Source: Schmidtea nova (taxonomy: Eukaryota). From it: a stretch of 64,000 bases of DNA. Where the stretch lies: contig CM097883.1 of assembly GCA_044892505.1 (NCBI GenBank), forward strand, positions 424,080,001-424,144,000. The letters run 5' to 3'. The translations under genes were made by a program, and so were the position numbers. A model generated the notes under the pieces. It saw nothing but the letters and a program-made list of their open reading frames with translations. It was not told the origin of the DNA and searched no databases. Numbering within the stretch: position 1 is the first letter of the stretch; each line of letters begins with the position of its first letter. Shown piece after piece: positions 8,606-64,000 of the stretch.

Positions 8606-8661
<56 letters not shown>

Positions 8662-15899: not shown

Positions 15900-15940
<41 letters not shown>

Positions 15941-18881: not shown

Positions 18882-18884
18882 TTT

Positions 18885-18902
18885 TGGTGAGCCCGACGTG
18901 AT
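18885..18902 (+). promoter_or_regulatory. Primer-binding site, tRNA-Trp
   Basis: TGGTGAGCCCGACGTGAT lies 3 nt after the LTR. Its reverse complement ATCACGTCGGGCTCACCA matches the animal tRNA-Trp 3' end as I recall it (ATCACGTCGGGGTCACCA) at 17 of 18 positions. Confidence 0.85.
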
Positions 18903-19165
18903 CCAAAGTCGGTGAAAGGTTATTAAAAGGAAATACTCAAAATTCCGAAGCGAGCAAAGTAACAAAATGAAAGCAAATTGAATAATTATTGATTAAAACG
19001 TAAACGTTACTCGTTGAAATTGTAAAGGTAATCGAATAAAGTTGTGGAAAGCAGTTCAACAAAAAGTAAAATTTTATAATTGATACATTAAAATTCAGAA
19101 GAGATAAAGTTATACCAACCAGACCATTTTACGATTTGAGAAGCAACAGGAAACCAGAAGACGAA

Positions 19166-20261
19166 ATGAACAACCCAAACGGTCATGATGATACACCCAT
19201 GTCCACAAGCAATACCGGAAATGGCAATGACTATGCTAGCTGCCAAAAATTACCAGTTAACCAATATGGGGGCGATCCAGTGGAATTTGTCGACTTTATG
19301 GCAGATTACTATATGTATGCCACAGCCTATGGATGGAGCCAATCAATAATGGTGCAAAGACTACCGCTGTATTTAAAGGGAGCAGCAAGAGAAGCCTGGC
19401 AACAAATTGACAAAAGGACAATTGCCAATGACTGGACAAAACTGAAAGATGCCTTAGCCGCGAAGTTAGTCGGAGGAGACATCAAACGGATAATGAGGCA
19501 GAAATTCTATAATAGAGTACAAAAATCAGACAAATCCGTAAGTGAATTTACATACCATTTGACCACGCTTGCAGAAAAGGCCTTCGAAGTAAAACCGGAA
19601 CAGATTGAAGTGGCAAAGCAGGTAAAGGAACTATTACAAGATCAGTTCTTAGCGGGAGTAAAAGGGGAAATCAAAAAAGCCTTATGTTATGTAGATTTCA
19701 ATAACTTCGATGAGTTAATCAAAAAGGCTATGAAAATTGAATTAAATTTAAAAAGTGCAAAGCCGAAATCAGAATCCTTCGCCATTATCAATGAATCAAG
19801 AGAAAGATCCAATTCTCCAGTCAGAAACAATCGGCTCCAGCAATCAAGTAGTCCATCACCAAAATTTAGACCAAATTTTGAGATGAATAACACGTGTTCA
19901 AATTGACGAAAAAGAACAACCAATTCAATGCAGTTATTGTCAACGGATGGGACATCATGCCGATCAATGTTGGTTCAAGAACCGATCGCAAAAAAGCCCA
20001 ACTCCAATTCAATGTGATCACTGTCAAAAGATTGGTCACAATAACAATCAATGCTGGTCTAAAAATAATGTACAACGAAGCCCAAAACGAATGTGGCCAG
20101 ATTGAACTAATGATAATATACAATGCTACAATTGTGGAAGGAAAGGACATGTTTCACGTAATTGTTTTGCTAGTTCGAGATCTCCATCCACTTCGCCATC
20201 ACCACAACGAGATAGAGTGAACCTTCAAGGCCAAATTCAATGTCATTCATGTCGAGACTAT
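19166..20261 (+). pseudogene. gag: Gag (capsid domain plus four CCHC zinc knuckles), interrupted by a +1 frameshift and a TGA
   Basis: Capsid motifs WSQSIMVQRLPLYLKGAAREAW, QKSDKSVSEF and DQFLAG. In the frame of ORF 20217, upstream sequence reads CSYCQRMGHHADQC, CDHCQKIGHNNNQC, then TGA at 20103, then CYNCGRKGHVSRNC and CHSCRDYGHMARSC. The frame switches at about 19887-19903. Confidence 0.9.
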
Positions 20262-45983: not shown

Positions 45984-46678
45984 TGTGAGACCGTGAGGCC
46001 CCACAACGACGACTCGGACTCCCTCGCCGCGTGAGCAGCATAGGAAGTATAACTATATGCATTAAAATATAAAAAAAGGAATATAAGATAACGTTTACAT
46101 ATAAGATTTTAATTAAACTAAAAATCATGGGTACATCATATAAGATAAAAAAATAAAAAAATTACTTCCGTACTTGAATATGTGGTTCCTTGTATGAAAT
46201 TCGGTTTTTCCAAAAAAAATTTACTCAAATCAAAGTTTAGTCTTGATCTTGAGTGAAAAGTAAAAGTCTCCGTCTGTGATTTTTGGATCGGTATTTATAC
46301 TGATCCGTCTGGTTGGATTGACCAATCAGGATCAGGCCGTCCATCAAAGTATTTTTATTATTTTAATCTAATCTAAACATTATTTTGTTTCCTTTTCCGG
46401 TTTCTCGCTGGGTGGTCCTGATTTTCCAAGTAATTAATTAATTATTTGTACTATTATTTTATTTAATTCTATTTTTTCTTATTTCAGGCCCCCTTTTGCG
46501 GTTGTTTACCGGTTTATTTTCAAAATTTCCTTTTACTGAAAATTTATCAATTATTATTTGTCGTTTTATTGTTATTTTTAATTTGTTTTTCTTGCTATTT
46601 TTATTTTTATTATTTCTTTATTGTTTCATGCTTTTGTTCGTTTTATTGTGTTTTTTAGGTGATTTGGCGGGCCCAACA
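45984..46678 (-). repeat. Candidate LTR (probably the 3' LTR of element 2)
   Basis: Starts TGTTGGG on the minus strand, as element 1 LTRs do, after a G-rich tract. A-rich U3-like stretch. CAATCCAACCAG...CAGTATAAA (TATA at 46300-46292) parallels CCAATCACCAG...CAGTATAAA in element 1. It ends ...CTCACA. The partner LTR is outside the window, so this is unverified. Confidence 0.45.
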
Positions 46679-46884: not shown

Positions 46885-47454
46885 TTATACAATTTGTTCG
46901 ATCGTCTGGCTCGCTTGGGGTTGAGTTCGGGTCCTCTCGTTGATCATTTGTAGCTCGTAGTGGGTTTGAATGTGGTTGAGATGGCTCCTTATTCGTCTTT
47001 GAGCTCGGTTATCTCGTCTGGAGGTTTGGTTGTAGATTTTCTGCTTTTGTTTTAGGATTTTTATTCTATACGAGGCAAGCAGGATTGTGATTGCGATGAT
47101 AGTTGTGCTGACTGCTAGGATTATGATGATTGCTATGATCCATTTCTCTTGGTATTCTATTTCAGCTTGGGATAGGCTTTTTATGGGTTCTCTACCTTCT
47201 TTCAGGATTTTTCGGGTTTCTTCTAGTTTCAGTTGTTGGTTATCGAAGATTTGTTGGATTTGATGATCTTGATTGTAGGGATATTTCTGTCGGAATTCGT
47301 TGATTTCTTTAATTACTTCTTCGATCAGGCTGTCTACTTTCTGGTAGATTTTGTCGGGTAGAACTCGTAATTGGGTTTCGGTTAGTTGTAGATCTTCTCT
47401 CTGTAGGGTAATGGTTGTTAACCATAGGAGTGTTGTTATTGCGAGCTTTCTCAT
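46885..47454 (-). CDS. Small type I membrane protein (accessory gene)
   Basis: Likely start MRKLAITTLLWLTTITL (signal-like), a helical ectodomain, TM WIIAIIIILAVSTTIIAITILLA, and a basic cytoplasmic tail. Confidence 0.65.
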   Translation of the reverse strand: MRKLAITTLLWLTTITLQREDLQLTETQLRVLPDKIYQKVDSLIEEVIKEINEFRQKYPYNQDHQIQQIFDNQQLKLEETRKILKEGREPIKSLSQAEIEYQEKWIIAIIIILAVSTTIIAITILLASYRIKILKQKQKIYNQTSRRDNRAQRRIRSHLNHIQTHYELQMINERTRTQPQASQTIEQIV

Positions 47455-47529: not shown

Positions 47530-48591
47530 TTATACAAGGGTTTCGTTGGGTTCGTAAAAACCTTCGTCTTGAGGTTCCACCTGATTTATGGGGAGTGGCA
47601 TCCATATTACCGTGCTCCTCCACATTTCGACTTCTTCTCGGTATGTGTGGGATATCTGGATCTCTTCATCTAATAAGTATTCCAGATAGTTCGCCTGTTC
47701 TGTTAGGGTTTCAATTTGTTTTTCTAGTTCTGCCAATTTTTACTCTCTCTCTTCCTTCTCCATCATTTCGGTCACTGCTGCTGTGATACTTGTTTCTTTT
47801 ATTGGTGTTGGTTTTTCTGCCAACTTCTTTCTCAGTTCTTCGTTTTCTTTTGTCAAATTTGTTATGTTCTCTTCATAACTCTGCCTCGTTTCTTCCAGTC
47901 TTTCTTTAGTTCTTTTTAATTCTATTTTCTTCTGGGTGATCACTCCTTGATATCCATTTATGTCTCTTTTCATGTTTTCTTCCTTGTGATTCCACATTCC
48001 GGTCAGCATACCTTTTAATTGTTCTTGATTGGCTAAATCTTCTCCCATTCTTTGTACTTGATAAGTTAATTCTTTTATTTTCTTGGCTTGTTCTCTGATG
48101 AATTGTTGTCTTTTCTTACTCCATACTTTATTTGACGCTTCTTGACTGATCTTTTGCCCTAATTCCTCTTTTAATTCATCGATCTCTTTAAACAGTTTCC
48201 AATCATCGCTGTACGCTGTTCGTTCTATTATCTCCCTTGCTTCCTTGTAAGAGTCTTTTGCCTCTTTCTTCCAATATCTTGCTTGTTCTGTAATTGACTG
48301 TATCTTATGGTCGGTTTTTATCTGTTGTCTATCTCTATCCTCTCGTCGCTCTTTCATCATCTCTTTGTAGTATTCATTTTGTTGCCTTAGCAGTTTGTAG
48401 ACTTCTTCTATTTTTTCTCGACTTCTTTGATTCGTTTCCTCGGCTTCTCTTAGTGCTTGGGTTTGTCTTTCCAATTCCTCCTGTTTTCGATAATAGGCAT
48501 GAATCCATATCCCAATCCGCTCCATGTGATTTCTGATCATTTCGTCTTGATGTACTGTTACTTCTTGTAAGGTTACTTCTATATTTCCCAT
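47530..48591 (-). CDS. Long coiled-coil accessory protein; one in-frame TAA at 47742-47740
   Basis: Track ORFs 47740-48591 and 47530-47736 are in the same frame (...EKEERE*KLAELEKQ...). E/K/Q-rich heptads throughout. Confidence 0.6.
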
Positions 48592-48709: not shown

Positions 48710-50086
48710 TTACGCCAACCATCCTTTTTTTTCCGTTTTCTCATGCCTCTCCATCTCTATGTATAGCGTATCTGCATATAGTTGCTCCCATAGGTTTTCT
48801 TTCCTTATAAACATTGGTTCTCCTGCTGCTAGTTCGCATTCTGTCGTTGGTTTTTCGCTCGTACTCGAATGTTTGTCTGTTTCAAAGAACTTTTCTACTG
48901 GTTTTCCCATACTTTTGATTCTTATAATGACTCCTATTTTCAAGGGCCATTCTATTAGGTCATCGTATTCTCCTTTACATAGTGAGAAGAATATTGACAC
49001 GTGTGTTCCTTGTCCTCTTCCGTCTCCATTTGGGTATACTTTCAATCTTATTTTAACCCCGTTTTTCCATAAATAAAATGGTGGGCTTATTACTGTTGTT
49101 TTCGTCATATTTCTGGCTTCTGCTAGTTTGTCTCTGAAATCTGTTACCTTCCATAGGTAAGGTGCGATTGGTAAGTCCCTTCTTTCGTCAATTTCTCGTA
49201 TTAATTGATTATATTGTATTTTCATTCCTTTTCCTAATTCTTCTATGGCTATTATTTTCTTTTCCATTCTTTCGCGAGTTAGTTCAAACTGCTCTCTTGT
49301 TTCTAGTAGTAAACTCATCATTATCTTATGTGATTCTACTTCTTTTTCTAATTTCTGGATTGTCTGTTTCGTTTCTTTTGTCGTTTCGTTTATCATTTCC
49401 ACATGCGTTAGTGCTGCTTCTTCTAGGTGTTGTTTCATTGATTGCCGCGTCCGCTTTTCTTTGCATCCCTGTTTGTTATATGGACATTCTCTTGGTCTTT
49501 CGGTACATACTTTCAAATGTTCATGTAACTTTACTTCTTCTGTTATTTCGCAATTGTTTGGACATTTACTTACATATTGTCTGCATACTTTCTCCTCTGT
49601 TATATTCAAGTGTTCCTCTTCGATTTTTCTCCTTGTTTCTCGGACTTCACAATACTCGCATGCGATTTCTTCTTCTTTACATTCTTCCTTGTGTTGTTCT
49701 CTCTTCTTTAGAATTATTGTCTGTTGGCACTTCTCGCATTCGGTTCTTTTCTCCTCGCACTTTTCCATATGGTTTTCTAGATTACTTATTTGTCCTTGCC
49801 ATGTACAAGGTGTATTTACGCACTCCGTTGTGGTGCTCATAATTTCTCTTTGGGTTGCTTTGTCCGTTCTGGTTTCGTTCAACACTATTCTTCCTTCTTT
49901 ACATTCTGGGCATGTTGTTATTCCTATTACATCTAATTCTTGTATACACTTTGTACATATTCTGCATCCACATATCGTTTGTCTGGGTTCTCGTAATAAA
50001 TTGTTACACTTCCCGCATGTGAGTCTCTTGCTCCATTTTCTGTTTTCTAGTCTCAAAATTTCGATTATTCGTTCTTCTCTGTCCAT
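48710..50086 (-). CDS. TRAF-family protein (RING, TRAF zinc fingers, coiled coil, MATH domain), intronless
   Basis: RING CGKC...EPRQTICGCRICTKC...CPEC. TRAF fingers ECVNTPCTWQG...LENHMEKC and CPYNKQGC...HL. MATH YLWKVTDF...SPPFY...G.K.RLKVYPNGDG.G.GTHVSIFF...GEYDDLIEWP. Confidence 0.93.
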   Translation of the reverse strand: MDREERIIEILRLENRKWSKRLTCGKCNNLLREPRQTICGCRICTKCIQELDVIGITTCPECKEGRIVLNETRTDKATQREIMSTTTECVNTPCTWQGQISNLENHMEKCEEKRTECEKCQQTIILKKREQHKEECKEEEIACEYCEVRETRRKIEEEHLNITEEKVCRQYVSKCPNNCEITEEVKLHEHLKVCTERPRECPYNKQGCKEKRTRQSMKQHLEEAALTHVEMINETTKETKQTIQKLEKEVESHKIMMSLLLETREQFELTRERMEKKIIAIEELGKGMKIQYNQLIREIDERRDLPIAPYLWKVTDFRDKLAEARNMTKTTVISPPFYLWKNGVKIRLKVYPNGDGRGQGTHVSIFFSLCKGEYDDLIEWPLKIGVIIRIKSMGKPVEKFFETDKHSSTSEKPTTECELAAGEPMFIRKENLWEQLYADTLYIEMERHEKTEKKGWLA

Positions 50087-50179
50087 TTCCTACAATAATA
50101 TATACATTCGACTTGTCATTTATTTTTGGTTTTTTCTTGTTTTTATTTTTACATATTTACAATTTTCCGCTTTATTTAT

Positions 50180-50536
50180 CTATGGCTCATTCGTTGAATC
50201 TGGTTCCGCTTCGTTGTTTAATCTATTTATTACCCAACTCATCCATCCTTCTTCGGATCCTTCTCTTTCTCCTCGTGTTAAATGGTTTATTTCTATTGCT
50301 TGTCTTTGATTGATATTGCTTATATTTTGATTTTCTCTGGTGAGCTCGGTTATCACTCTTTGTTGTTCTTCTATTCTGTGTAATTTCTCGAAACAGTTGT
50401 TATAACTTTCTGATAATAACATTTGTCTTTCCGCTAATTGGTTCTGTAATGAGTTGACTGTTCGTACTAATAAATCACATTGTGCTTTCCATCTCATAGC
50501 CATAGTTATTTCAGTTGTTTCGTCCTGTTCGGTCAT
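50180..50536 (-). CDS. Short coiled-coil accessory protein
   Basis: 118-aa ORF with heptad pattern and the same composition as its neighbours. The ATG is preceded by ATTTAG|AAA. Confidence 0.55.
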   Translation of the reverse strand: MTEQDETTEITMAMRWKAQCDLLVRTVNSLQNQLAERQMLLSESYNNCFEKLHRIEEQQRVITELTRENQNISNINQRQAIEINHLTRGEREGSEEGWMSWVINRLNNEAEPDSTNEP

Positions 50537-50661: not shown

Positions 50662-53600
50662 CTATACCATCATTATCGTCTTTTCCTCGTATCGTTCTTC
50701 ATCTTCTATTTGTTTCCAGAATTCTTTACCTTTCGTTCTTCTTTGAAATTCTTTCTGTATCTCCTCTGGTATTTCTATTCCTAGTTTCATGATTTTGATA
50801 TCTGGCCATTGTATGGCTGTCGCTTTGTTTCTCTTTCTGTATCTCCAATATACTATTATGCTTGTCGTCAGTATTCCATATGCTATTAATATTCCTATAC
50901 TCATTAATCCTATTATTGTTTTTCCACTGTTTGTTTCTCTTTTATTCTGGTTCGCTTTTATCTCATTTTGGGTTTGAGCCTCTGGCTTCTTCTCTTTCTG
51001 TATTTGACTCTTAACTTTGTTCATTACTTCTTGTGTAGACCAATGGCGGTTTAGTAGTTGTTTGACGTTATTTTCTTTTGTTCGGTTTTCCATGTTTCCT
51101 GGTTCGATCTGTTGTTGTAGTTTCTCTGAGATCTGATATAATCCGCATTCTGGTTTTTCTGAACTTTTTCTGGTGAAGGTACATATCGCGTATGTCCTAT
51201 TTACTTTCATTTTCTTTAATTCGACTTTTTCTTTATTCTTTATTTCTTTACAGTGGGTTAGGTTGTCTTCTTCCCCTTCTGGGTTATGCTTTGTCCAACA
51301 TATTCCTTTAACTGTCTGATCGAGTCCTGTTAATGTCAGAGTTCTTTCTGTCTTTGTTAGTTCTTCTTCATCGAATTTCAGTATCTCTCCTTTTTGGAAT
51401 GTCTTGCAATGCTCTATTCCCTCTTGGATTCCTTTCTCCCAGATACATATACTTCCTTCTTCATTCATTTGTATTTCTTGTATTTCGATTTCCTTGTTTG
51501 TTCGTGATTCGTCGCTTGTCTGAACTTGGTATTCCTTCCTTGGTTCGTTGTATGTTCCCCAGCATAGTTTGTTGCTACTTGTTTTCCTTATTGTTATGGC
51601 CATTTGTTCTATTATTATTCCTTTATCGATACGTTTGGACATTGCTAGTATTAATGCTATGCATACGCACTCTTGTTGGGGTGATATTCTTTCTCTCGTT
51701 TTATTGGTGCTTTTCTCTCCTTCTCCTGGTTTATCCGTTGTGTTTCTTATCTGAGTTGCTGGTTGATCTATGGTGTTTTTGATTTCTTTCTTTGTTGGTT
51801 TTACTCTATACCATTCGAGTCCAGGCGTTTCATATTTTTGGCATACGACTGTCTTAGGTAGCCCCGCCTTCTTTTCCTTTCCTATTATGCATATTCGATG
51901 CATGATTCCTCTATACATCCCTTCTATTCGTACTACATCCTGGTCGGATTTTCTGATTATGCATTTTAGTGGGTTATCTTTCCCAATTGGTTCATCCTCT
52001 CTATTCCAGCATATTTTCCCGACTTCCTGGACATTTGTTACTTTTATCCCTGTCTGTGGGTTTATTGCTTCTTCCCTATTGATTAATGTCAATATTATTG
52101 TTAGACCCAACCATTTTGAACTCTGCGGTAGGCTTCTGGTTCGCCTTTCATATTTTTTCTCTTCGCCTTTAATCTCTTTTATTTCCTTGTCTTTGTTGTT
52201 TATTCCTAGTTTTCCGCTTTTCGCTTCTTTCTTATTTGGTTCTTCTCGTGCTTTTTCTTCTAGTATTTCTACTCCATGGCTTGTATTATCTATATTTAGC
52301 CATTGGGTTGTTGATTTTCTTGGGCTTATCTTGCGTAGCCATATAGCTGATAACGCGATTATTACTGGTATGGTTGCTGTTAATATTCCTAAGCCGATTA
52401 GTTCTTTAATTTCTTTATTCTCGTCTGTTTGTGTAGGTTCGCTTTGGTTGAACATTATTCCGTATTGTCCCTTTAGTTTTCTCATTAATTGTTCTCGTTC
52501 CTCTTGCTTTCTTTTGACTTCTTTGATAACTTCTTCGGGTGTCCATTTTGCTTGAGGGTCGGTTATTGTTTTTTCTGCGTCCATTTGTTCATTCGTTTGG
52601 CTTAGTTCCCTGAATTCGAGTTTCCTTGTTATTCCTTTTGATGTTGCGTTCGCTGGTGTATAGTAGGTTTCGCATCTTTCTTGTTGGTTTCCTAGTGCGT
52701 CCGTTTTTTCTATTGTACATACTTCGTACTCGCTATTAAATTGTAGTTTTTCGATCTTGATTTCTTTATTTGTTTTTCTGCACTCTCTTGATTGTCTTCT
52801 TATATATTTCTGGACTATTATCCAACATATCTCCAATGTTTTATTCTCTATTTTCCATAATGTCAGAGTTGCTGATGTCTTTTTCTCGGATTTTGTCGTA
52901 ACTTCTTGGCTTATCGGTTGTTTATTGTTTTTAAAGGTAGTGGTGTACTTCGGTTTCCCTTTGTTTCGTTGTCTTCTTTTATTTTTTCGTGTTAACGTTT
53001 TAGTTCTTGTTCCGGATGAAGTGGTGTATATTCCGCATTCTAGGTCGTTTATCGTTATCTGATCATTTTTCTTTACCAGACATATTTCGTAGGTTTGTTT
53101 ACTTTCTAGACCTTTTATTTGTATCGTTGTTGCTCCTGTGCTTGTTTGACATTGTGGTGTCGTTCTTTTATTTGTTTCCTTTTCGTACTTCCTCCAGCAT
53201 ACTCCTTTCACATTTGGTTCTATCTCTTTTATTTCTAATGTTATGTTCATTTTCCGCTTGATTTGTTTATTTCTCTTCCTCGTTCTCCTTCTGAACTTTA
53301 TTACTTCTCCGGGTTGAAATGTTTTACATTTTGTGGTACCTTTCTTGTTTGTCTCTTTTTCTAATAGGCATAGTTTGTACATCTTATCTGCTTTTACTTC
53401 GGATACTTTAATTACTTTGTTTGTTGTTGGTTTTCGACTTTTCCTTATTTCATTTACGCCGATTTCCTCGTTATTCCTCGCCCAACATTTTATGTTAGTA
53501 TTCTGTGTATCTTCTACTTCTGTTATTGTCATAGTTTCAATTTCTATTCCTTCCTCTAATCGTTTTATTATTATTAGTATGAGTGCTAAGCATAATACTT

Positions 53601-56600
53601 CCATTTGGTAAGACACTCTTTCAGTTTCGTTTGTGGCAACTCTTGCTTCGGGCCTCTTTATTGTAATTCGTATAGTTGGTGTTGTTTGCTTATCTATTAC
53701 CTGGGGATTTTTGTTTTCTGTTCCCTGTGTCTCTGTTCTTCCACATTTTCCGAGGATGTAATCTCCTTTGGGTGACTGTTGTATTGTCATGGCTGCTTTA
53801 GGTGTTTGGTATTTTGCACATGCGATTGTGTTGTGTGATCTTGGATGCTTTTGTTTTCTAACGGTGCATATTTTGTACCAGGTATCTAGATCTAAGTCAT
53901 TGATCTCTATGATCTCTTGCTCGTGTTTTGAGATTCTGCAATCCATCGGGCTATTTTGTTCCGTGGTTTTGTCCTTTTTCGACCAACATACTCGTTCGAT
54001 TCCTTTTGCGTTTTTTATTTGTATTATTGCCCTTTCTTCACATGTCATTCCCTGACTTGGATTAATTAACGTTATAATCATTGTTAGTAATAGTAATTCT
54101 GGTTTGAAGAATGGTTTTATGGTTGATTTATAACCTGTTCTTTGGGTGTCTCCTTGGTCGTTTGTTCCTTGTTCTCTCTCTTCATCTCTTTGTTTTTCAT
54201 CTTCACCTTTCTTTCCTTCCTTGTCTCGTTTCTTGTCTTTTCTCTCGTTTTCCTCTTTATCGGGTGGTTCGTGATCGCTTGAATTTTCTGAGTTGTTACC
54301 GTCGTCACTATCTGTGTTGTCATCTCCCCCTGGCTCGTCGAAAATGTTGTCCTCGACATTGATTTCTTCTATTAGTTTCGCATACGCTAATGTCGTTAGA
54401 TTACTTGCCTCAAATTCTTGTGTTTCTACCTGCTCCGGTATTACTTTGTTAGTGGATTTATGTTCCAAGATTTCCTTTTTGGCCTTGATCCAATTGTTGA
54501 TGTATGTCTTCATCAATTCTTTCCATTTGCCTGTGTATTTTTCCTCTTTCGGGCTGGTTGTGATTTTTAGATCTTTTCTTTCCATAAACATCTTCAATAT
54601 CTCTGGCCATTTATACGTTATTAAGGCACTTCTTATGCACCAGTTTTGGTTATGTTCGGTAAACTTATTGATCCTGAATGCTGGTTCGTTAGTATTAGGA
54701 TTTATCCACGTAAGTATTGATTCTGTTAGTTCGACGTTGTTCATCATTGCTAGTACACTGGGTTTCTTGACCGTATCAGTTAGGTGATCTATTTCTTCCT
54801 GATTTGGGACGGTTTTAATGAAATTGACCATTTCCCAATTGTGTGTTAATAATGCTACATCCAATATCGAATTATCTTTATCTGTCTTTCCTGTAAGTCC
54901 TGCACCTGCTTTGTATAGTTCTTCTAATACCTTTGTTTTCGTTTTGGCCCTTGCTGCAAATACCATAAGTGTATCTCCTTTCTCGTCTATCATATTCATA
55001 TTGCTTCCGCAATTTAGCATTACTCTTGCAATTTCCATTACTTTCCTATCTTTGCCATTTCGTAGAGCTCTATGTATGGGCATTATTCCGTCTTTTGGTA
55101 ATAGGAATGTTACTGGCATCTCCTTTTTTATTATTACTATGTCGTTACCATTGTATGTTCCTTTTGCGTATGCGTGTACTTTTTCAACTAATGCGCCGAG
55201 TATTTCCAGTGCATGTTTACTATTCTCGAATTCCGGTAACAATTCTTTTGCTTTTTCTTGTATCGCATCTAGTCTAGCTTGGTATGGTGCTTCTGCTTTG
55301 AAGAGTGGTGTGAGTTTCTTGTTACTTTCTCTTTCTTTTTTCTCTAAAACCTGTTTGCATTTTTCGGGATGGTTTAAGATTTTTACTAATTCCTCATATT
55401 CGCTTACTATCGTCTGGTATTTCTCGTTAAAATTGTTTATATCTTTGTATGTTATTAGTTTATCAAGTGGTTTCGCACACCATTTCCTAATCTTATTGAA
55501 TAAGGCTTCCTTCTCTTTATCGAATTTGTATTCTTCTTCATTCTTTGTGATGTTTATGTTTCCTCTGTCTAATAAGGTTAGTAATGTCTTCTGATCACAA
55601 GTAAATTTCAAAAGGTATCTTAACAGTGCGTTTTGTCCTTCGCTGTATACTTCGTTTATGTCTAAGACCCATGTATCATCTTCTGGTCGTTTCCATTTGA
55701 TTAACTTACGGATCGTGTTGCATTTACCAATTTTGATTGCCTCTTCGATAATGTCTCCTTTAACTAGTTCGTCTATCTCCCAAGTGGAGTTAGCTATTAT
55801 GTATTTCAGCATTGGTTGGTGAGAACTCCATATTACGTGATTTAGCACTGTTTTGTCCTCTCTATCTCGTTCTGTCCAACTGAAATGAGCTTTTATCAAT
55901 AGGTCTATCATTTCTTTATCTGCTTGGTGGATTGCGGCTGTCATTAATGGAGTTTCTTGTTCCCGATTCCCTACGTCCAAGTTTTGGTTTGTTTCTTTTG
56001 CGATTTTTAGGAATTCTTTTGCTCTTTCAATGTTTTTACACTCTATCGCATTATGTAAGGCTGGTTGTCCTCCTACATCTTTCAATAAGAGTATTTCAGG
56101 GATTTTTTCCAATAATTCAGAAATAATTGGTTCGGTTGGTAATCCTTGTGCGTAACGGCTAATTATATGTCTAATATCCCTTGATATGCCTGCTTCGTCT
56201 CTAACATGCCATCTTCCCATTATCTCTCTCGCCTTCAATATGATTTCTTTATTTCTGATTTCCTTTTGCCTTATTTCTGCTTTGTCGTCTTTAGTTGCGT
56301 TAGTTCTGAGCATATTTATCCTGGCTGTTTGTGATCTAGTTATTATTCGATTTTCTGGTGTTGTAGTTATCGTTTTAGGCACCTTCTTACATCTGCAGGT
56401 GTTTACGTATATGGGTCGTATTAACGGTCGATTTATTAGCTTAACTTTGACATTGTTGTCCTTTTTGTATATAATTTCATAAGGTCCTCTTCCAGGTCTT
56501 TGGAGTTTCTTAACAGTTCCGGGTATTATTTCGGGAGTTTCTATTATCACCCAATCTCCTGGTTTTAGATCGTTCGCTTTAACATTTTTCTTCTGGTCGT

Positions 56601-59600
56601 GTAAGTCCTTATAACTTTCCTGATAAAATTTAATGTTGAGTTCTGCCGTTTTCCATATTTCCTGCATTCTTTCTTTGAATTTGGTTACGTAGTCGTCATC
56701 TTCCATATATTGCGATAATGGTGGCTGATACTCTAAATCTATGGGCATGTTGCATTCTCTTCCATACATAAGTTGAAATGGGCTTAGTTTTGTTGCTGCA
56801 TGTATCGACATTCGGTATGCCATTAAACATAATTTTATGTATTCATCCCAGTCAGTTTGGTGTCTGCTGACGTAGTTTGATAACATTCTAATCAATGTGC
56901 CGTTGAATCGCTCCGTTTGTCCATTCGTTTGCGGGTGATATGGTGAAGTTCTCAATTTTGCTATTCTGAAGTAGTTTGTCACCTCGTTCAATAATTCACT
57001 CATAAAATTAGTTCCTTGGTCTGTGAGTATTTGTTTTGGAGTTCCGTATCTGCAACATATTTCTTCCACTAGAATTTTTGCTACGGTTTTTGCTTTTTGG
57101 TCTTGCATGGCAAATGCTTCCGGGAATTTCGTCAGATAATCCGTTATTACCAATATATAAATATTTCCGTTTAAACTTTCTGGTAATGGCCCTATTACGT
57201 CCATTGCTATAGTTGTCATTGGCTCTGCTGGTATTGGCATTGGTTGTAGTGGGTTTTTCCATTTCTTCCCACTATCCTTTCTGGTTGCGCAGGTTAGACA
57301 ATTTTTAATCCATTCCTTTATATCTTCTTCCATTGTTCGCCAATAATATTTTTGTCTCATACGATTTATGGTCTTTTTCTCGGACATATGACCTCCCAAT
57401 TTCCCATCATGGTATTGGATCATTATCTCTTTCCTTCTGTTTTCCGGTAAACACATCAATCTCTTTTCCCCGTCGTGTATTAATAACCATCCTTTATTTA
57501 TTATGTAGCGATGTTGATATTTTCCTATATGTTCCTTTAATTCCTTATTATCCTTAAATACCTCCATATTTCGAGACGTTAGGAACTCTATGATCTGTCC
57601 CAATTCTTTGTCTTCCTGTTGATCTTTCTTTAACTCACTAAAATCTAGATCCTCCGCTATTAATACACAAATTCGTTGTACATCAGGATCGGTTAGTTCT
57701 GGAAATGTCAGTCTTGACATACAATCTGCATTCGCATTCGCTCTTCCTGATTTAAATTTTATGTCCGGTGAGTACTCCTGTAACTGCATTGCCCATCGCA
57801 TTAATCTACTGGATGTTTCCTTGTGCTGTCCTAACCATACAAGCGGTTGGTGATCTGTTGTTATGCAGATGATGTGTCCCCATAATAAATATTTAAAATG
57901 TTTTATTGCTAGTATAATCGCTAATGCTTCCCGTTCTGTTACTGAGTAATTTTTCTCATGCTTTTTGAATGTCCGGCTATAATATCCGATTACGCGTTCC
58001 TTTCCTTCGTCGTCGTATTGTCCTAATACGGCTCCTGCTGCATATCCGCTTGCATCTGCTGCAAGTAGGAATGGTTTCTTGAAGTCTGGGTGTACCAATA
58101 TAGGTGCGGTTATCAGTTTATCTCTTAATGTCTCGAAAGCTGTCTGCTGTTCGTCTCCCCATATGAATGATACATCTTTCTTGACTAGTTCCTGTATAGG
58201 TTTTGCTATTCCGGCGTAATCTTTTATAAACTTTCTGTAGTATCCACACAACCCAAGAAACTCTTGTATCTGGGTTATTGTTTTTGGTACTGGACATTCT
58301 TTTACCTTGTCGATATTTCTAGGATCCGGTTCTTTTCCTTTTGCTGACACTATATGTCCTAAAAATGTTACTTTCTCTTTCGCCCAGTCACACTTGGATG
58401 GCTTGAGTTTTAACTTCCATTGTCTAAGTCTAACGAATACATCTCGAATATCCTGTATGTGTTGTTCAAACGTGCTAGAATAAATCAATAAATCGTCTAT
58501 GTAGACCATACACTGCTTTATCCCATGGGTGACGAAATTCATGCATCTCTGAAATGATGCTGGTGCGTTTGTTAGTCCAAATGGCATCTTTCGAAATTGA
58601 TATAGGTCTCTACCGATGGTAAAGGCAGTTTTCTCCTTATCTTCTTCCTTCATTTTTATTTGCCAATATCCGCTTTTCAGATCTAACGACGTAAAATATG
58701 CTGCTCCTTGTAATGTTAATAGCATTTCATTAATGTCTGGTAATGGGTAAGTATCCCTTTTTGTCACTGTATTCAATCTTCGATAATCTATACAGAATCT
58801 CTGTGTTCCATCTTTCTTCTTTACCATTACCACTGGAAATTGCCAGGGTGAACAACTTGGTTCGATTACTTCTGCATCCAACATTTTCTTCACTTCTGCT
58901 TCTGCTACTGCTTTCTGTGCTTCCGCTAATTTGTACGGCCTTAATGCAATTGGTGTTTCATCTGTTAATGGTATTGTATGTAGTGTGACATCACATGTTC
59001 CTAGATCTAAATCGGATGCTGCAAATATATCCTTATACTCTATCAAAAGTTTTTCTAACTGCTTCTTTTGATCCTCGTTTAATAATTCACTATCAATATT
59101 CCAGGTTGGTTCTTTATCTTTCTCTGCCCCTTCTATTGGCAGTTCAATATCCATCATTGGGGTTAGTTTGCCTAATCTTTCGTTTTCGTAGATTATTTTG
59201 TCCTCTTCATCGAAGTTTACTATGTTTATTGGGATTTCTCCATTGTCATTTATGTTGACTAGTCCTCTTGCCATTGGCAACGCTTTTCTTTTCTCGAATC
59301 TTTTACTTGGTTCGAAAATCATATCGCCTTGGATTGTCGGATCTATTTTTACGTAACATATTTTCTCCTTTCTTGCGGGTATTATCATTTGCTTTGAACT
59401 TGTCACTTTGGCTTCTATTGCGCATATTTGTCCTGTGCGATCTTTTAGTCTCATTGTTCCGAGATCGATTACAATCTCTTTAAATAAGGCTGGCATCAAA
59501 TCTGTTCCGATAATGCAAGGCACGCTTAATGCTGGTATGACTGCTACGTACGTATCGATTTCCGTATTTAAGTGGCGTATTTTTACCCACCATCTTCCTG

Positions 59601-62600
59601 CTACTTCTACAACTTCTTTGCTACATGCAATTACATGGACGTTTGTCCTTTCTATATCTCGTCTTTGCTCTTGTGGTATCCATTTGATGTCGATGGCGGA
59701 AATGTTTGCTCCAGTGTCGATCATTGCTTCGATTTCTCTTCCATTAATTTCTATTGTCGTGGTTAGTACTGGACCTGTGTTTGATGACATTACTGCGATC
59801 GTGTGTGTATCTCCTTGTGGATCTACGCTTCTACATCTTCTCATTTTATAATCTTCTGGTATCATGGGGTATACATTTGTCATTGGCATCATTTGCATCG
59901 TGCTATTTTTTCCTCCTTGTAGTGGTTCTTGATACATGGTTGGTGGAGGTGCGTAACATTTCCATGCGTCGGCTGGATTCTTTTCGATGTATTGTGGTGC
60001 TTGGTTCTTATACACTTGTTCTCCCTTATAGTCGTCATCGTCATCGTCGTCGTCACTTGAATCATTTTGGGTTTTATATCCTTTCATCCTCTCCCATAAA
60101 CCTTTTCTTTCTCCCTTGAGCTGTTGTCTTGCTTGTTCGTCATTCATTATCTTTTTAAATTTTCGTCCTACTTCTTCATCTGTTCCCTTCATTTTTGCGA
60201 GTATCTTCAACAATCTCTTTATTCGATGTATGTCCTTTGAGTGTCCGTGCAACACCATCGTTTTCGCAAGGAATGGTAAAAATCCTACTACCATTTTCCA
60301 ATTCACTTTCTTTTCTCTCTTGTAGATGTCAAAACACGCGAGCATTTGCGTTATTATCACTCTGACGATTTGGATTATTAATATTACCCCTAGTATTCCA
60401 GCCATCATTTGTCCGAATATCAAGAATCTTCCCCACATTGCTTTCATCATATTTTCGGTGGCTTTCTTGAAATGTGCTGGTGACAACAACAGTTCATAAT
60501 TCGGTCCTTCTCGATAATTCGTTCCTCCCGTTATCGTTACGATATTTGACAGTAATGCTTCTCTTCTCGCTGGAAATAATATATTCTGCCTTGCTGCTTC
60601 TAAATCCTTTGGACTATATATTCCGTTGTTTGAGACATCTACGTCGCTGAATTGCCTATCCTTTGACAACTGCATTAGCTCGAATTCTCTTGGTGCTATC
60701 ACTTCGGATCTTCCTGGGAACATAACCCATTTACCATCTGGTTTCTGATAAAGCGGTCCATACGCATTACTACAGTTGAATGGATTTGGTTCGAATCCTG
60801 GTGGATTGATGATTCTCGTCACTGGTTGAACGTATCGTACTTTTCCTTTGTAATCGATTTCTAACTCATTTGTACAGGTTCCAGGTTTCAACTGTGTTGT
60901 TGCTGCTAGTGACGCGTGTGTCTTTTCGCAAATGTATACATACATTGCTTCTCCAACCACTCTTCCGAAATGTCCTTCTCTTAGTGGTAATAATGGCATC
61001 GCGCTATCTGGATTCGTAATCGCTATGGCCAACTTTGTCTTTAATATTTCTCGATTCAGTATACAATCATTGTTTATTAGATCGTAGTACACTTTTTGTA
61101 ATGAGGCTTGTCCTCTATGGAATAGGAAATCCATTTTATTATTCACATACAGGTGTAGTTTGATATCTATTGTGTCGATTTTGTGTTTCGCATTCGGCAC
61201 TTCTTGTTTTGACACATATATTCCTGGGTAATTTGTTTCGTATACCGTTGTACTACACTTAAGGGTTGCTTTCCCTTTTATGAACCTCATTCCCACATCC
61301 TGATTTGTGGTTATCAACACTGTTGGTGTGGCTCTCATCTCTATCCGTTTTTCTCTATGATCCGTTTTCAGTTGTCTTTTATTCTCTAAAGCTTCCTTGA
61401 GATGCTTTGCTCTAGCTTTGTCGTCATCGTCTTCTTCCTGAAACGTTTTTCCTTGAATTTCGTCGAATTTTGCTCCTTGTAGCAGTTGTAGTTGACATTC
61501 ATTTACCTTTGGTTTGTATATTAATGTTGACATTCCCGTTTGACACATGCTCCTATCGATTTGACACATGGATAACGTTTTCATTTCTCCTGTTGTTGGT
61601 TCGAAGAATGCTTCATAGCTTTTTAATTCGACTATATACGTATCCATCACCACTAAGTTAGTTGCGGGTACTCCGAATATCGGGTAGGTTTCTCCTTGAC
61701 AATATCCTTCTCCTCCCGTAATCCGTCCTGCTACATAGTATGTCTGTTGCATCATCATTCCTGGCTTTCCTCTTATCTTGATTTTATCTCTTGTTGTTAC
61801 TTCTCCATGTTTAAACAGTGCTTCGCAGTCTTCTCCTTGTAACACGATTGGTTCTCTTTCCGTTCCTGGCATGACAATTGCTGAATAGTGTCCTCTCCCG
61901 CAGTAGAATGCGAATCTCGTCTTCTGCACCTTACATTCATTCACCATTGTCTTTATAAGTTCTGCTTCTTGATACACGTGGTACCATTGTTCCTTTTTAA
62001 TCTTTTGCAACTCTACTGGAGTCGCATCTTTGCATTGCTCCGTACCTCTCAATGAATACTTTTCTCCTAACTTCATTTGGTCGCAATCAAACACTTCGAA
62101 TGCTGTTGCGCTATCGGTGCTAATCATCCATATCAACATCATCATTATTATAGAACTCAAATTCATTGATGACTTCGCGTTTCCCGTTCCTGCTTGTTCT
62201 TTTGCTAACTCTTCCAATATTTTTTCGAATTTCTTTTTCATATTCTTCGCTTGCGTTTTCTTCTGGTTAGTTTTTATAAATGTTTCCCATCCTCCTTTGT
62301 TAATGACGTATGGTTCTATTTCTCTCGCTATAATTTTTGCGGTATTTTTTATATGTCTCTCTAATGCAGTGGGTTTTGGTCGACCTCTACTCAATGTCAA
62401 CAGATTGTATATCGTGTATGCAATGGCTATTACGTATTTGTTATCCGTTTCCGCTCCTTCTGTCAGCTTCTTTATTAACATAGTGGTTCCTTGCCAGTCT
62501 AAATGGTTTGACTTCGTCTTTTCTTTTATGAATTCCGGTAAGATGGGTGCGATTGCGCTGTGTAGTGACTTCGCCTTTTCGCTTATCTCAGTTATACGCC

Positions 62601-63999
62601 AGCATTTTCTTAATTCCGGATCAATTATTGCCAATATTTCCATTATTGTTTTCGATATCCATTCCTCCCCCTGACATATTGGTGTTGTCTCTTTTTCTTT
62701 CATCTCCGCAATTTTATTTAGTTTCCTTAGGCATAATTCCCATTGATCTTGTCTCTTTTCATCTTTATTTCTTATAACTACAGTTGCTGGGTCTGTCTTA
62801 GGTCTACCTCTAGGTCGTTTATCCATTCCTGTACCTGTTTCCACAAACCTTGTTGCCCGTCCTGTTTCTTCCGTGACATCTCTTGGTTCGTTAGCTCTTT
62901 CTTCTAACCATCTTTCCATTTCCTGGGTTAATTGTACATTTTCGGCATACGCTCCTCTGGTTTCATCTTCTGTTAAATCGTTGACTTCTTCTACTATTAT
63001 TTCCTGTTCGACTTCTGTTTCTCCGGTGTTGGTTACTTGTATTGCCGTAGGTAATTCTTGTATTCTTTCGAAAATATTGTCGTCTTTTTCCTTTGTTAAT
63101 TCGGTTAATTCTTCTATCATATCGTCGCTGTCTGTAAATATTTCGTCCACGTCATATGGTTGTGGTGGAGTCCTTTCTCTATTTCCTCTGGGTGTTGTCT
63201 CAGATCGTCTCGAACTTGTCCCTGGTGTTAGTGCTGATTTCATCGGGCTCGGCGTACTTATACTTCCGTGTGGTTTATGGTTTTCTTCTTTACGTTTCAA
63301 TGGTTGACCCGCTATTGCTTCTACTGTCAAGGTATTCATGAGGTCTAATTGTGCTGGTGTTATTCCGATTTCCAAACTGTTATCTAATGATCGTCCTTGG
63401 TGTTGTAAATGGAATGGTGGTTCGTATCTCAATTTCTTTTTAATATCTCGAATTTTTTCTGCTATTCCTACCCACAACTCTTCCTTATCCTTGTTTGGGT
63501 ATATTATTCTTAAATGTACTTTTTGTGGAATTTCCTGCGAGAATTCTTGATTTCTCCATTTCCTAATTACGTGGTCTAGTTGTTCCGGACACCACTCGTT
63601 AACTCTTTTATATTCCGCGATTGCTTTTGCTACTTTACGCAAGCATGTTATATCCTCCCCATTTACCACGAAAAAATCTGCGAGACCCTTTATTACTTTT
63701 CTCTTACCGTGCGCATTAGTTTTTAATATCTCGACAAATTCTTCCGTTTTTTGCTTTTCCCTTTCTAACCACATAGCCGCTGTTTCTGGTCCATCTAGGT
63801 CTATTGGCGTAGCTTTCCTTGTCACCATGCAAACCCTTCCTATCTCTGGTTCGCAGTCATCTTCAATTCCTCTTTTATATTCTTCTTCATATTCCCCTTC
63901 TTTTGGTTCCCAACATTTTCCTTTCTCGTTCCATTGTTTTTCTACGGGTGTTCGTATTCGTCTGTTGAGATTGAGTTCTTCTAATACATTTTCCCACTC
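50662..63999 (-). CDS. pol: Giant polyprotein (>4400 aa, 5' partial): UBL, Bcl-2-like, signal plus chuvirus-like glycoprotein, PR, RT, RNase H, INT, ankyrins, two FN3-like membrane proteins
   Basis: Hand translation shows the frame stays open from 63828 to the window edge, so the true start and gag lie outside. Signal plus FEVFDC at about 62160-62083, TM at about 60430-60250, MIDTG at about 59715, YIDD at about 58500, the RNase H motifs DAS...EREA...TDH, HHCC plus D..D..E integrase at about 57420-56750, ankyrin motifs at 56085-54815, and TMs at 52402-52336 and 50917-50845. Confidence 0.95.
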   Translation of the reverse strand, partial: EWENVLEELNLNRRIRTPVEKQWNEKGKCWEPKEGEYEEEYKRGIEDDCEPEIGRVCMVTRKATPIDLDGPETAAMWLEREKQKTEEFVEILKTNAHGKRKVIKGLADFFVVNGEDITCLRKVAKAIAEYKRVNEWCPEQLDHVIRKWRNQEFSQEIPQKVHLRIIYPNKDKEELWVGIAEKIRDIKKKLRYEPPFHLQHQGRSLDNSLEIGITPAQLDLMNTLTVEAIAGQPLKRKEENHKPHGSISTPSPMKSALTPGTSSRRSETTPRGNRERTPPQPYDVDEIFTDSDDMIEELTELTKEKDDNIFERIQELPTAIQVTNTGETEVEQEIIVEEVNDLTEDETRGAYAENVQLTQEMERWLEERANEPRDVTEETGRATRFVETGTGMDKRPRGRPKTDPATVVIRNKDEKRQDQWELCLRKLNKIAEMKEKETTPICQGEEWISKTIMEILAIIDPELRKCWRITEISEKAKSLHSAIAPILPEFIKEKTKSNHLDWQGTTMLIKKLTEGAETDNKYVIAIAYTIYNLLTLSRGRPKPTALERHIKNTAKIIAREIEPYVINKGGWETFIKTNQKKTQAKNMKKKFEKILEELAKEQAGTGNAKSSMNLSSIIMMMLIWMISTDSATAFEVFDCDQMKLGEKYSLRGTEQCKDATPVELQKIKKEQWYHVYQEAELIKTMVNECKVQKTRFAFYCGRGHYSAIVMPGTEREPIVLQGEDCEALFKHGEVTTRDKIKIRGKPGMMMQQTYYVAGRITGGEGYCQGETYPIFGVPATNLVVMDTYIVELKSYEAFFEPTTGEMKTLSMCQIDRSMCQTGMSTLIYKPKVNECQLQLLQGAKFDEIQGKTFQEEDDDDKARAKHLKEALENKRQLKTDHREKRIEMRATPTVLITTNQDVGMRFIKGKATLKCSTTVYETNYPGIYVSKQEVPNAKHKIDTIDIKLHLYVNNKMDFLFHRGQASLQKVYYDLINNDCILNREILKTKLAIAITNPDSAMPLLPLREGHFGRVVGEAMYVYICEKTHASLAATTQLKPGTCTNELEIDYKGKVRYVQPVTRIINPPGFEPNPFNCSNAYGPLYQKPDGKWVMFPGRSEVIAPREFELMQLSKDRQFSDVDVSNNGIYSPKDLEAARQNILFPARREALLSNIVTITGGTNYREGPNYELLLSPAHFKKATENMMKAMWGRFLIFGQMMAGILGVILIIQIVRVIITQMLACFDIYKREKKVNWKMVVGFLPFLAKTMVLHGHSKDIHRIKRLLKILAKMKGTDEEVGRKFKKIMNDEQARQQLKGERKGLWERMKGYKTQNDSSDDDDDDDDYKGEQVYKNQAPQYIEKNPADAWKCYAPPPTMYQEPLQGGKNSTMQMMPMTNVYPMIPEDYKMRRCRSVDPQGDTHTIAVMSSNTGPVLTTTIEINGREIEAMIDTGANISAIDIKWIPQEQRRDIERTNVHVIACSKEVVEVAGRWWVKIRHLNTEIDTYVAVIPALSVPCIIGTDLMPALFKEIVIDLGTMRLKDRTGQICAIEAKVTSSKQMIIPARKEKICYVKIDPTIQGDMIFEPSKRFEKRKALPMARGLVNINDNGEIPINIVNFDEEDKIIYENERLGKLTPMMDIELPIEGAEKDKEPTWNIDSELLNEDQKKQLEKLLIEYKDIFAASDLDLGTCDVTLHTIPLTDETPIALRPYKLAEAQKAVAEAEVKKMLDAEVIEPSCSPWQFPVVMVKKKDGTQRFCIDYRRLNTVTKRDTYPLPDINEMLLTLQGAAYFTSLDLKSGYWQIKMKEEDKEKTAFTIGRDLYQFRKMPFGLTNAPASFQRCMNFVTHGIKQCMVYIDDLLIYSSTFEQHIQDIRDVFVRLRQWKLKLKPSKCDWAKEKVTFLGHIVSAKGKEPDPRNIDKVKECPVPKTITQIQEFLGLCGYYRKFIKDYAGIAKPIQELVKKDVSFIWGDEQQTAFETLRDKLITAPILVHPDFKKPFLLAADASGYAAGAVLGQYDDEGKERVIGYYSRTFKKHEKNYSVTEREALAIILAIKHFKYLLWGHIICITTDHQPLVWLGQHKETSSRLMRWAMQLQEYSPDIKFKSGRANANADCMSRLTFPELTDPDVQRICVLIAEDLDFSELKKDQQEDKELGQIIEFLTSRNMEVFKDNKELKEHIGKYQHRYIINKGWLLIHDGEKRLMCLPENRRKEIMIQYHDGKLGGHMSEKKTINRMRQKYYWRTMEEDIKEWIKNCLTCATRKDSGKKWKNPLQPMPIPAEPMTTIAMDVIGPLPESLNGNIYILVITDYLTKFPEAFAMQDQKAKTVAKILVEEICCRYGTPKQILTDQGTNFMSELLNEVTNYFRIAKLRTSPYHPQTNGQTERFNGTLIRMLSNYVSRHQTDWDEYIKLCLMAYRMSIHAATKLSPFQLMYGRECNMPIDLEYQPPLSQYMEDDDYVTKFKERMQEIWKTAELNIKFYQESYKDLHDQKKNVKANDLKPGDWVIIETPEIIPGTVKKLQRPGRGPYEIIYKKDNNVKVKLINRPLIRPIYVNTCRCKKVPKTITTTPENRIITRSQTARINMLRTNATKDDKAEIRQKEIRNKEIILKAREIMGRWHVRDEAGISRDIRHIISRYAQGLPTEPIISELLEKIPEILLLKDVGGQPALHNAIECKNIERAKEFLKIAKETNQNLDVGNREQETPLMTAAIHQADKEMIDLLIKAHFSWTERDREDKTVLNHVIWSSHQPMLKYIIANSTWEIDELVKGDIIEEAIKIGKCNTIRKLIKWKRPEDDTWVLDINEVYSEGQNALLRYLLKFTCDQKTLLTLLDRGNINITKNEEEYKFDKEKEALFNKIRKWCAKPLDKLITYKDINNFNEKYQTIVSEYEELVKILNHPEKCKQVLEKKERESNKKLTPLFKAEAPYQARLDAIQEKAKELLPEFENSKHALEILGALVEKVHAYAKGTYNGNDIVIIKKEMPVTFLLPKDGIMPIHRALRNGKDRKVMEIARVMLNCGSNMNMIDEKGDTLMVFAARAKTKTKVLEELYKAGAGLTGKTDKDNSILDVALLTHNWEMVNFIKTVPNQEEIDHLTDTVKKPSVLAMMNNVELTESILTWINPNTNEPAFRINKFTEHNQNWCIRSALITYKWPEILKMFMERKDLKITTSPKEEKYTGKWKELMKTYINNWIKAKKEILEHKSTNKVIPEQVETQEFEASNLTTLAYAKLIEEINVEDNIFDEPGGDDNTDSDDGNNSENSSDHEPPDKEENERKDKKRDKEGKKGEDEKQRDEEREQGTNDQGDTQRTGYKSTIKPFFKPELLLLTMIITLINPSQGMTCEERAIIQIKNAKGIERVCWSKKDKTTEQNSPMDCRISKHEQEIIEINDLDLDTWYKICTVRKQKHPRSHNTIACAKYQTPKAAMTIQQSPKGDYILGKCGRTETQGTENKNPQVIDKQTTPTIRITIKRPEARVATNETERVSYQMEVLCLALILIIIKRLEEGIEIETMTITEVEDTQNTNIKCWARNNEEIGVNEIRKSRKPTTNKVIKVSEVKADKMYKLCLLEKETNKKGTTKCKTFQPGEVIKFRRRTRKRNKQIKRKMNITLEIKEIEPNVKGVCWRKYEKETNKRTTPQCQTSTGATTIQIKGLESKQTYEICLVKKNDQITINDLECGIYTTSSGTRTKTLTRKNKRRQRNKGKPKYTTTFKNNKQPISQEVTTKSEKKTSATLTLWKIENKTLEICWIIVQKYIRRQSRECRKTNKEIKIEKLQFNSEYEVCTIEKTDALGNQQERCETYYTPANATSKGITRKLEFRELSQTNEQMDAEKTITDPQAKWTPEEVIKEVKRKQEEREQLMRKLKGQYGIMFNQSEPTQTDENKEIKELIGLGILTATIPVIIALSAIWLRKISPRKSTTQWLNIDNTSHGVEILEEKAREEPNKKEAKSGKLGINNKDKEIKEIKGEEKKYERRTRSLPQSSKWLGLTIILTLINREEAINPQTGIKVTNVQEVGKICWNREDEPIGKDNPLKCIIRKSDQDVVRIEGMYRGIMHRICIIGKEKKAGLPKTVVCQKYETPGLEWYRVKPTKKEIKNTIDQPATQIRNTTDKPGEGEKSTNKTRERISPQQECVCIALILAMSKRIDKGIIIEQMAITIRKTSSNKLCWGTYNEPRKEYQVQTSDESRTNKEIEIQEIQMNEEGSICIWEKGIQEGIEHCKTFQKGEILKFDEEELTKTERTLTLTGLDQTVKGICWTKHNPEGEEDNLTHCKEIKNKEKVELKKMKVNRTYAICTFTRKSSEKPECGLYQISEKLQQQIEPGNMENRTKENNVKQLLNRHWSTQEVMNKVKSQIQKEKKPEAQTQNEIKANQNKRETNSGKTIIGLMSIGILIAYGILTTSIIVYWRYRKRNKATAIQWPDIKIMKLGIEIPEEIQKEFQRRTKGKEFWKQIEDEERYEEKTIMMV

Positions 64000-64000
64000 T

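Follow-up and report, generated by a model that had tools for sequence, protein, structure and literature searches.

Burro elements and planarian TRAF proteins

Burro elements are already known to carry TRAF/MATH cargo (PMC6431247). The Burro/GYPSM1 passages of that review describe elements of about 30 kb with one huge polyprotein, a gag with three CCHC knuckles, an in-frame env that lies between gag and protease, ankyrin repeats, a BCL2-like region, a RING, and TRAF-type cargo. The element that we describe here shares these features, except that its BCL2-like region is only probable. In those passages, a MATH_TRAF_C domain is placed within the polyprotein (in Schmidtea mediterranea) or in an upstream accessory ORF (in D. 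tigrina), and no other TRAF domain is named. In contrast, our element has a full gene for RING, zinc fingers, coiled coil, and MATH, which lies downstream of the polyprotein in a cassette of four ORFs.

A regulator of cell death is likewise found on Burro1, whose B-IAP guards stem cells against apoptosis (Lee et al. 2026, Dev Cell, as described in a passage of PMC13465017). B-IAP is an IAP with RING and BIR domains and a demonstrated effect, whereas the cargo here is a TRAF that we know from its sequence. In S. mediterranea, BURRO1 is transcribed and is repressed by PIWI (passage in PMC8532177). S. mediterranea also has a large and unexplained expansion of TRAF/MATH genes, with 121 and 282 transcripts reported (PMC6109357, PMC7586133), and knockdown of host Smed-TRAFs leads to lesions and lysis (PMC7586133). 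The TRAF passages of these two papers do not tie the expansion to elements, and the string "transpos" is absent from the available text of PMC7586133.

We analyzed a 64,000-nucleotide stretch of the Schmidtea nova genome (the window; contig CM097883.1, positions 424,080,001 to 424,144,000). What is new here is the complete anatomy of an intact copy, a set of five families that share one inherited cassette, and unbiased estimates of selection; we also remove two false clues and describe an operon-like layout with acceptor-like sites. In titles and the beginnings of abstracts, we found no report of a full-length TRAF cassette or of spliced accessory mRNAs in Burro elements, which does not establish their absence from print.

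A TRAF gene inside a Burro-like Gypsy element

The TRAF ORF (48710-50086, minus strand, as are all the features of this element) lies in the internal region of an env-bearing, Burro-like Gypsy element of 29.9 kb. The 3' LTR is 3141 bp long (43538-46678). Its twin, the 5' LTR, is beyond the window in the neighboring stretch (L031), at 70261-73400 if the numbering of the window is extended. Only 4 mismatches and 1 gap separate the pair; both LTRs have TG..CA ends, and a 4-bp target duplication flanks them. The initial annotation had put the TRAF ORF inside the 3' LTR, which was wrong: the ORF is about 2.0 kb from the LTR's edge. Just past the 5' LTR, the stretch at 6230-6260 of L031 may resemble a tRNA-Pro primer-binding site. 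The LTR itself contains ORFs of 158 aa (44780-45256) and 198 aa (44006-44602). Both have homologues at the equivalent place in families C and D (see below), and the 198-aa ORF has a further homologue elsewhere (L109).

Within the window, the polyprotein (50662-64000) includes env, protease, reverse transcriptase (RT), RNase H, integrase, and ankyrin repeats, as identified by Pfam. Its length had been given as 4388 aa, which became 5484 aa once the sequence past the window was included. The full polyprotein begins with a gag that has three CCHC knuckles (beyond the window), followed by a probable Bcl-2-like domain, a Monjiviricetes-type fusion protein, protease, RT, RNase H, integrase, and ankyrin repeats. 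The match to the fusion glycoprotein is at 60319-61341 (PF24664, E = 1.5e-70), between gag and protease. The Bcl-2-like domain (62239-62682) is probable, given weak profile matches to Bcl-2/Bcl-xL (E of about 1) and a low-confidence model (pLDDT 49); every fold match listed for that model is in the Bcl-2 family (E = 0.03-0.14). Neither Pfam nor a single-sequence search of the PDB gave a match for this region. The tail of the polyprotein (50662-54378) has repeated cysteine modules that resemble receptor ectodomains, a weak match to fibronectin-III (E = 0.29-1.3), and hydrophobic segments; such modules are absent from the Burro passages of PMC6431247.

Downstream of the polyprotein are ORFs of 118, 458 (the TRAF), 283, and 189 aa, and then the 3' LTR. 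The two ORFs that flank the TRAF, of 118 aa (50180-50536; no family assigned by Pfam) and 283 aa (47740-48591; charged and probably coiled-coil), each have an acceptor-like site before the start. The 189-aa ORF (46885-47454) has hydrophobic segments, and no acceptor-like site was found before its first ATG. The initial annotation was thus right that the TRAF ORF is packed between other accessory ORFs and is in the same orientation as the polyprotein. Upstream of the polyprotein, a 153-aa ORF (5471-5932 of L031) encodes an IAP/MDM2-type RING (PF13920, E = 2.8e-11) without a BIR, and it has an acceptor-like site before its start.

The element is of the Burro type by its described features, as opposed to a sequence comparison with the named Burro1-4. 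It is 29.9 kb long with 3.14-kb LTRs, has a single polyprotein with three knuckles in its gag, and has env before protease (PF24664), ankyrin repeats, a RING, and a MATH_TRAF_C, with the RING and the MATH in separate ORFs. The BCL2-like motif that Burro elements have before env has no Pfam match here, and the Bcl-2 matches in our element are weak yet consistent. Similarly, the dUTPase-like region between protease and RT has no Pfam match (on 59230-59589), and the passage of the review that describes this region detected it only by HHpred (PMC6431247). A BIR domain, which is listed for Burro1/GYPSM1, was not found in the polyprotein or in the accessory ORFs that we scanned; this argues against Burro1 itself but not against the wider Burro group.

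A complete TRAF protein

The 458-aa ORF has no stop or frameshift, and its domains are in the order of the TRAF family. The RING (residues 24-62; 49901-50017) was identified from PDB matches to the N terminus and from the alignment of copies; it is followed by five TRAF-type zinc-finger units (residues 89-228; 49403-49822), as seen in the Cys/His spacing in the alignment and a zf-TRAF match, a predicted coiled-coil helix (residues 225-301; 49184-49414), and a MATH/TRAF-C domain (residues 310-448; 48743-49159). Pfam matches are to MATH_2 (E = 8.6e-21), TRAF-mep_MATH (E = 6.9e-20), and zf-TRAF (E = 7.7e-9). In a PDB sequence search, matches cover both the RING with its zinc fingers and the MATH domain, and N-terminal structures of TRAF6, TRAF5, and TRAF2 match the RING region. 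In the AlphaFold model (mean pLDDT 88.9), residues 225-301 form a long helix and the MATH domain forms a sandwich; by fold, the model best matches TRAF1/2/3/5. These results bear out the claim of a complete and lesion-free ORF.

The RING is not canonical: its motif reads TICGCRIC, with a Cys where C3HC4 has a His. Seven of the eight RING ligands are kept in 30 of 30 copies, and C62 is kept in 29 of 30. The A-rich coding strand that the initial annotation pointed out also sets the TRAF apart from host genes, as the proportion of third positions that are A is 0.56 in the TRAF ORF, 0.47 in the element's RT-integrase region, and 0.31-0.35 in four host TRAFs. Because the third positions of the TRAF are like those of the element and unlike those of host TRAFs, they point to long residence in the element.

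Copies in five element families

We found at least 432 TRAF-bearing copies across five element families (A to E), and the gene order is common to the copies that were read. These are exact matches to family-specific start patterns (130 for A, 114 for B, 13 for C, 87 for D, and 88 for E), so the count is a lower bound; backwards controls gave 0 matches. (As the acceptor motif is part of the patterns, the counts give no separate evidence about acceptors.) A DNA search gave 564 candidates, and 40 of the 40 that we scored were full length (97-100%). Among the top copies of family A that we fetched, the flanking genes were common to 30 of 30. The other families were found by protein search, and their TRAFs are 52% (B), 43% (C), 76% (D), or 67% (E) identical to that of family A. 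For families B, C, and D, one copy each was read out to RT and integrase: the RT is 91-99% identical, and integrase and the same cassette adjoin the TRAF. Family E was read for the cassette and the end of the polyprotein only, and the cassette was present at 7 of 7 loci. Between families, the TRAF differs by 24-57%, while the RT differs by 1-9%.

The presence of the TRAF in other element copies was one of the checks suggested for this locus, and it is present. A single-copy gene with host synteny that is absent from other elements does not describe this TRAF, which is multicopy and lies in element cassettes. Relative to the 13 non-element loci that we found (see below), element-borne TRAF starts are in excess by about 30 to 1, with an incomplete list of host loci. 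If the same is true of S. mediterranea, then TRAF counts, wound-response signals, and RNAi results from that species may partly concern retroelement genes. In one region (G000:C1:590.84-590.94 Mb), four copies of family A are about 33 kb apart, which could be a tandem array.

Selection on the element TRAF

The TRAF is almost certainly element cargo that is kept under selection. The initial annotation had called for dN/dS among copies, which we computed by pairwise Nei-Gojobori, without a correction for transition bias. Because the 30 best-scoring BLAST copies (dN/dS = 0.156) were considered a biased sample, we repeated the analysis on two other samples. First, we went along contig 1 in the order of the genome and took 40 copies, without ranking, from among the first 100 pattern matches listed, minus the loci that had been picked by their TRAF (L001-L030). 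The ORF was 458 aa long in 27 of these copies and 451-452 aa long in 2, and the remaining 11 were broken; 8 of the 40 were dropped from the dN/dS analysis because of frameshifts or large deletions. For the other 32, dN/dS was 0.120 (bootstrap 0.091-0.157), with a dS of 0.204 and a dN of 0.025. Second, for copies picked by the end of the polyprotein, dN/dS was 0.144 (29 of 30 copies used); all 30 had the first 325 codons, and these were open in 29. For family B, dN/dS was 0.097 (21 of 23 loci used). Overall, values of 0.10-0.16 indicate purifying selection.

In the unranked sample, dN/dS was below 0.17 for all four TRAF domains, and it was 0.13-0.16 for the RING and zinc fingers. Among the neighbors, dN/dS was 0.09-0.15 for the 118-aa ORF, 0.07 for the 283-aa ORF, and 0.32-0.41 for the tail of the polyprotein, which is less constrained.

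The TRAF ORF might instead be a passive hitchhiker that is intact merely because the copies are young. The copy in the window is indeed very young (5 differences between its LTRs over about 3141 positions), and 11 of the 40 unranked copies are broken, but youth does not account for a dN/dS of 0.12 at a dS of 0.20, or for the retention of the full architecture over five families at 43-76% identity. We give hitchhiking hardly any chance.

Origin of the element TRAF

The phylogeny with host TRAFs that had been proposed places the element TRAFs among those of triclads. Our first tree (57 rows) was a quick search only, so we used two smaller careful trees instead, one that lacks 26 of the 57 rows and one with a changed set of 38 rows; these should be read with the caveat that the tree program flagged a biased amino-acid make-up in the element rows. 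In the 38-row tree, the element TRAFs form one clade (support 100/99). Its sister (99/98) is a set of three unnamed database proteins (P0032, P0163, and P0164), and a triclad group (100/100) encloses the element clade along with TRAFs from Dugesia and Dendrocoelum and the nine non-element loci of the CGC clade that were in the tree. In the smaller careful tree, placing the element rows with non-triclad rows was weakly rejected (p-AU = 0.032). The branching of the TRAFs, (C,(B,(A,D))), agrees with the order of RT identities. No host gene in this genome, from an incomplete list, is the direct sister of the element clade in the 38-row tree. A scan of metagenomes for P0032 gave no locus, and a homologue search gave only unnamed close relatives. 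From these placements, the element TRAF very probably derives from a host gene, and since the element TRAFs form a single clade within the triclad TRAF radiation, one ancient capture before the five families split is likely.

The closest named relatives are in the triclad TRAF2-like family (D. japonica TRAF2A and D. lacteum TRAF-2/4/5), which has the same domain order, the Cys-for-His RING, and the same place in the tree. The element TRAF differs from that family in being mobile and multicopy, in its low identity (27-32%), in its proportion of K/E (0.26 vs. 0.12-0.19), and in its altered MATH pocket.

In this genome, a search that was not exhaustive found 13 non-element chromosomal TRAF loci, of which ten are in the clade that is related to the element TRAFs and three are TRAF4-like. 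One locus, the orthologue of Dugesia japonica TRAF2A (71% identity), encodes its protein in one open frame. Eight of the ten loci in the clade are single open frames, and the other two are broken. The Cys-for-His RING is present in 7 of the 10 (by pattern; one has Asn), and also in three Dendrocoelum proteins, in three echinoderm TRAF3-like proteins, and in 17 of 98 parsed homologues overall. Both of these results bear on what can mark a capture. The intronless state of the ORF had been read as showing retroposition of an mRNA, which is not borne out, because host paralogues are also intronless. The Cys was correctly noted, but host planarian TRAFs share it, so it is neither specific to elements nor a clue to capture. 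Capture through RNA is the usual route for LTR elements. Host TRAFs with a single ORF also form three tandem clusters, at G000:C2:452.92-452.99 Mb, C2:416.82-416.83 Mb, and C3:43.80-43.90 Mb.

The single open frames at 8 of the 10 loci would also be expected if the flow were reversed, with elements spreading TRAFs and the intron-free host paralogues being domesticated element copies. But none of the host loci that we found nests within the element clade, Dugesia japonica and Dendrocoelum lacteum have TRAFs related to them, and they lack both the composition of the element and the neighbors from its cassette, so we consider this very improbable.

Acceptor-like sites and spacing of the accessory genes

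A gene that lies 3' of a 16-kb ORF would need its own mRNA. A predicted splice acceptor (50090-50100, minus strand), which is a T-rich stretch ending in AG, is 3 nt before the ATG of the TRAF. This acceptor-like site is invariant in 30 of 30 copies that were picked without regard to the TRAF. Across all five families there is such a site 1-3 nt before the TRAF's ATG, including 7 of 7 loci from family E. Because the distance from AG to ATG varies between families, the site is not simply an in-frame stop.

The other accessory ORFs show a similar pattern. In the window copy, YAG is found within 3 nt of the ATG for 6 of 7 accessory ORFs, as compared to 81 of 702 positions in the spacers; at internal ATGs, with a 9-nt window, YAG is found at 33 of 129. 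With a stricter test for a T-rich acceptor, the counts are 4 of 7 accessory ORFs vs. 2 of 129 internal ATGs. In families A-D, a site lies within 6 nt of the ATG in 11 of 12 cases for the three core ORFs; these cases are not independent, as the families are related. Where measured, 89-125 bp separate one core ORF from the next, which is similar to the peak at roughly 100 bp for the spacers of trans-spliced operons in Macrostomum, as given in a passage of PMC8629364.

Together, the acceptor-like sites and the spacers of about 100 bp suggest that the accessory mRNAs are spliced or leader-trans-spliced. The TRAF is probably expressed via a spliced mRNA, in cis or by spliced-leader trans-splicing, and the layout of the acceptors would offer a simple and testable mechanism of expression. 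Near the 5' LTR, we found no convincing splice donor; one match lies outside the element. We also considered AATAAA poly(A) signals, which are in 3 of 5 spacers, but we discarded them because they also occur at 2.7 per kb in the polyprotein. Contigs from four runs, of unrecorded kind, cover spacers and genes alike, and among the matches listed none has a junction or a free end at an acceptor, which is not evidence either way.

Proposed role and alternatives

We put a probability of roughly 60% on the whole of our reading, which is that a complete TRAF was captured once, was fixed as an accessory gene, is expressed by splicing, and acts as a pro-survival adaptor. The TRAF would have been taken from among the TRAFs of the planarian host itself before the five element families diverged, and it would be expressed through the acceptor just 5' of the ATG, by cis-splicing or spliced-leader trans-splicing. 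The protein would form trimers via its coiled coil and would bind host partners with a MATH groove whose hydrophobic pocket has changed. As an adaptor or ubiquitin ligase, it would shift the host's death and immune signaling so that the cell bearing the element survives, next to the probable Bcl-2-like domain and the IAP-type RING that the element also encodes. Burro elements would thus have a whole signaling adaptor among their means of controlling cell death. Modulation of host immune or death signaling, as the initial annotation had it, is plausible; that the role is specifically pro-survival, which we propose by analogy with Burro1's B-IAP and the knockdowns of host TRAFs, has about even odds.

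We mapped the hot spots of TRAF2, as listed in a passage of PMC6125299, onto the alignments by eye. The element TRAF shares the MATH fold with vertebrate TRAF2/3/5 (TM-score to target of 0.72-0.85) and keeps the equivalents of Y395 and F410 and the S-S-T serine site. Besides the Cys for the RING His, it differs from the vertebrate proteins in having Lys for R393 (as do several host TRAFs), Ser for F456, and Glu for C469. Across the three receptor hot spots, the polar and serine sites are largely kept, and 2 of the 5 positions in the hydrophobic pocket are clearly changed. The F456 position is Ser in families A, D, and E and is Tyr or Phe in 6 of 6 parsed host loci. Judging from these positions, canonical receptor binding may have been lost through the changed pocket. 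Because the RING and the zinc fingers are constrained, the best reading would be an active adaptor with shifted partners that favors survival of the host cell.

The TRAF could instead be a decoy that enters the trimers of host TRAFs or sequesters their partners, thereby dampening immune signaling against the element, with no relay towards survival. The hydrophobic pocket is altered in 3 of 5 families, element copies are in large excess over the 13 non-element loci found, and the TRAF diverges rapidly between families as compared to RT, which fits a conflict with the host or a decoy as well as it fits our reading. However, purifying selection on the RING and all of the zinc fingers (dN/dS of 0.13-0.16) goes beyond what a bare decoy would need, and the receptor serine and polar sites are kept. 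We consider a decoy unlikely.

Another alternative is that the TRAF serves the element's own membrane proteins (the C-terminal modules of the polyprotein, or the 189-aa ORF) as one half of a receptor-adaptor pair, analogous to LMP1 of EBV with host TRAFs. The cysteine modules, weak fibronectin-III match, and hydrophobic segments in the polyprotein's tail are consistent with such a receptor, and the changed groove could suit a private ligand. However, there is no clear Px(Q/E)E motif, by eye, in the predicted cytoplasmic tails. This pairing seems less probable still than a decoy.

Returning to the pro-survival adaptor, a broader version is doubtful but not far-fetched: the cassette would be a eukaryotic operon that the host's spliced-leader machinery divides into individual mRNAs and that delivers a re-targeted TRAF from hundreds of copies, and most TRAFs in such genomes, perhaps including much of the planarian expansion, would be element cargo that shapes the survival of stem cells.

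Other elements in the window

The window contains a second Gypsy element (18072-35327, plus strand), with 810-bp LTRs that are 99.9% identical, a gag, and the same type of env before the protease. Its RT is 48% identical to that of the large element, and matches to TRAF and Bcl-2-like domains are absent from it. Its pol is split between 25709 and 25767, and it has an ORF similar to DEDDh/RNase_T (29628-31091). A third element (8555-16281) has long terminal inverted repeats. It encodes a protein-primed DNA polymerase B, which is split into two ORFs (9655-10860 and 10870-13404), and has a weak match to endonuclease VII.
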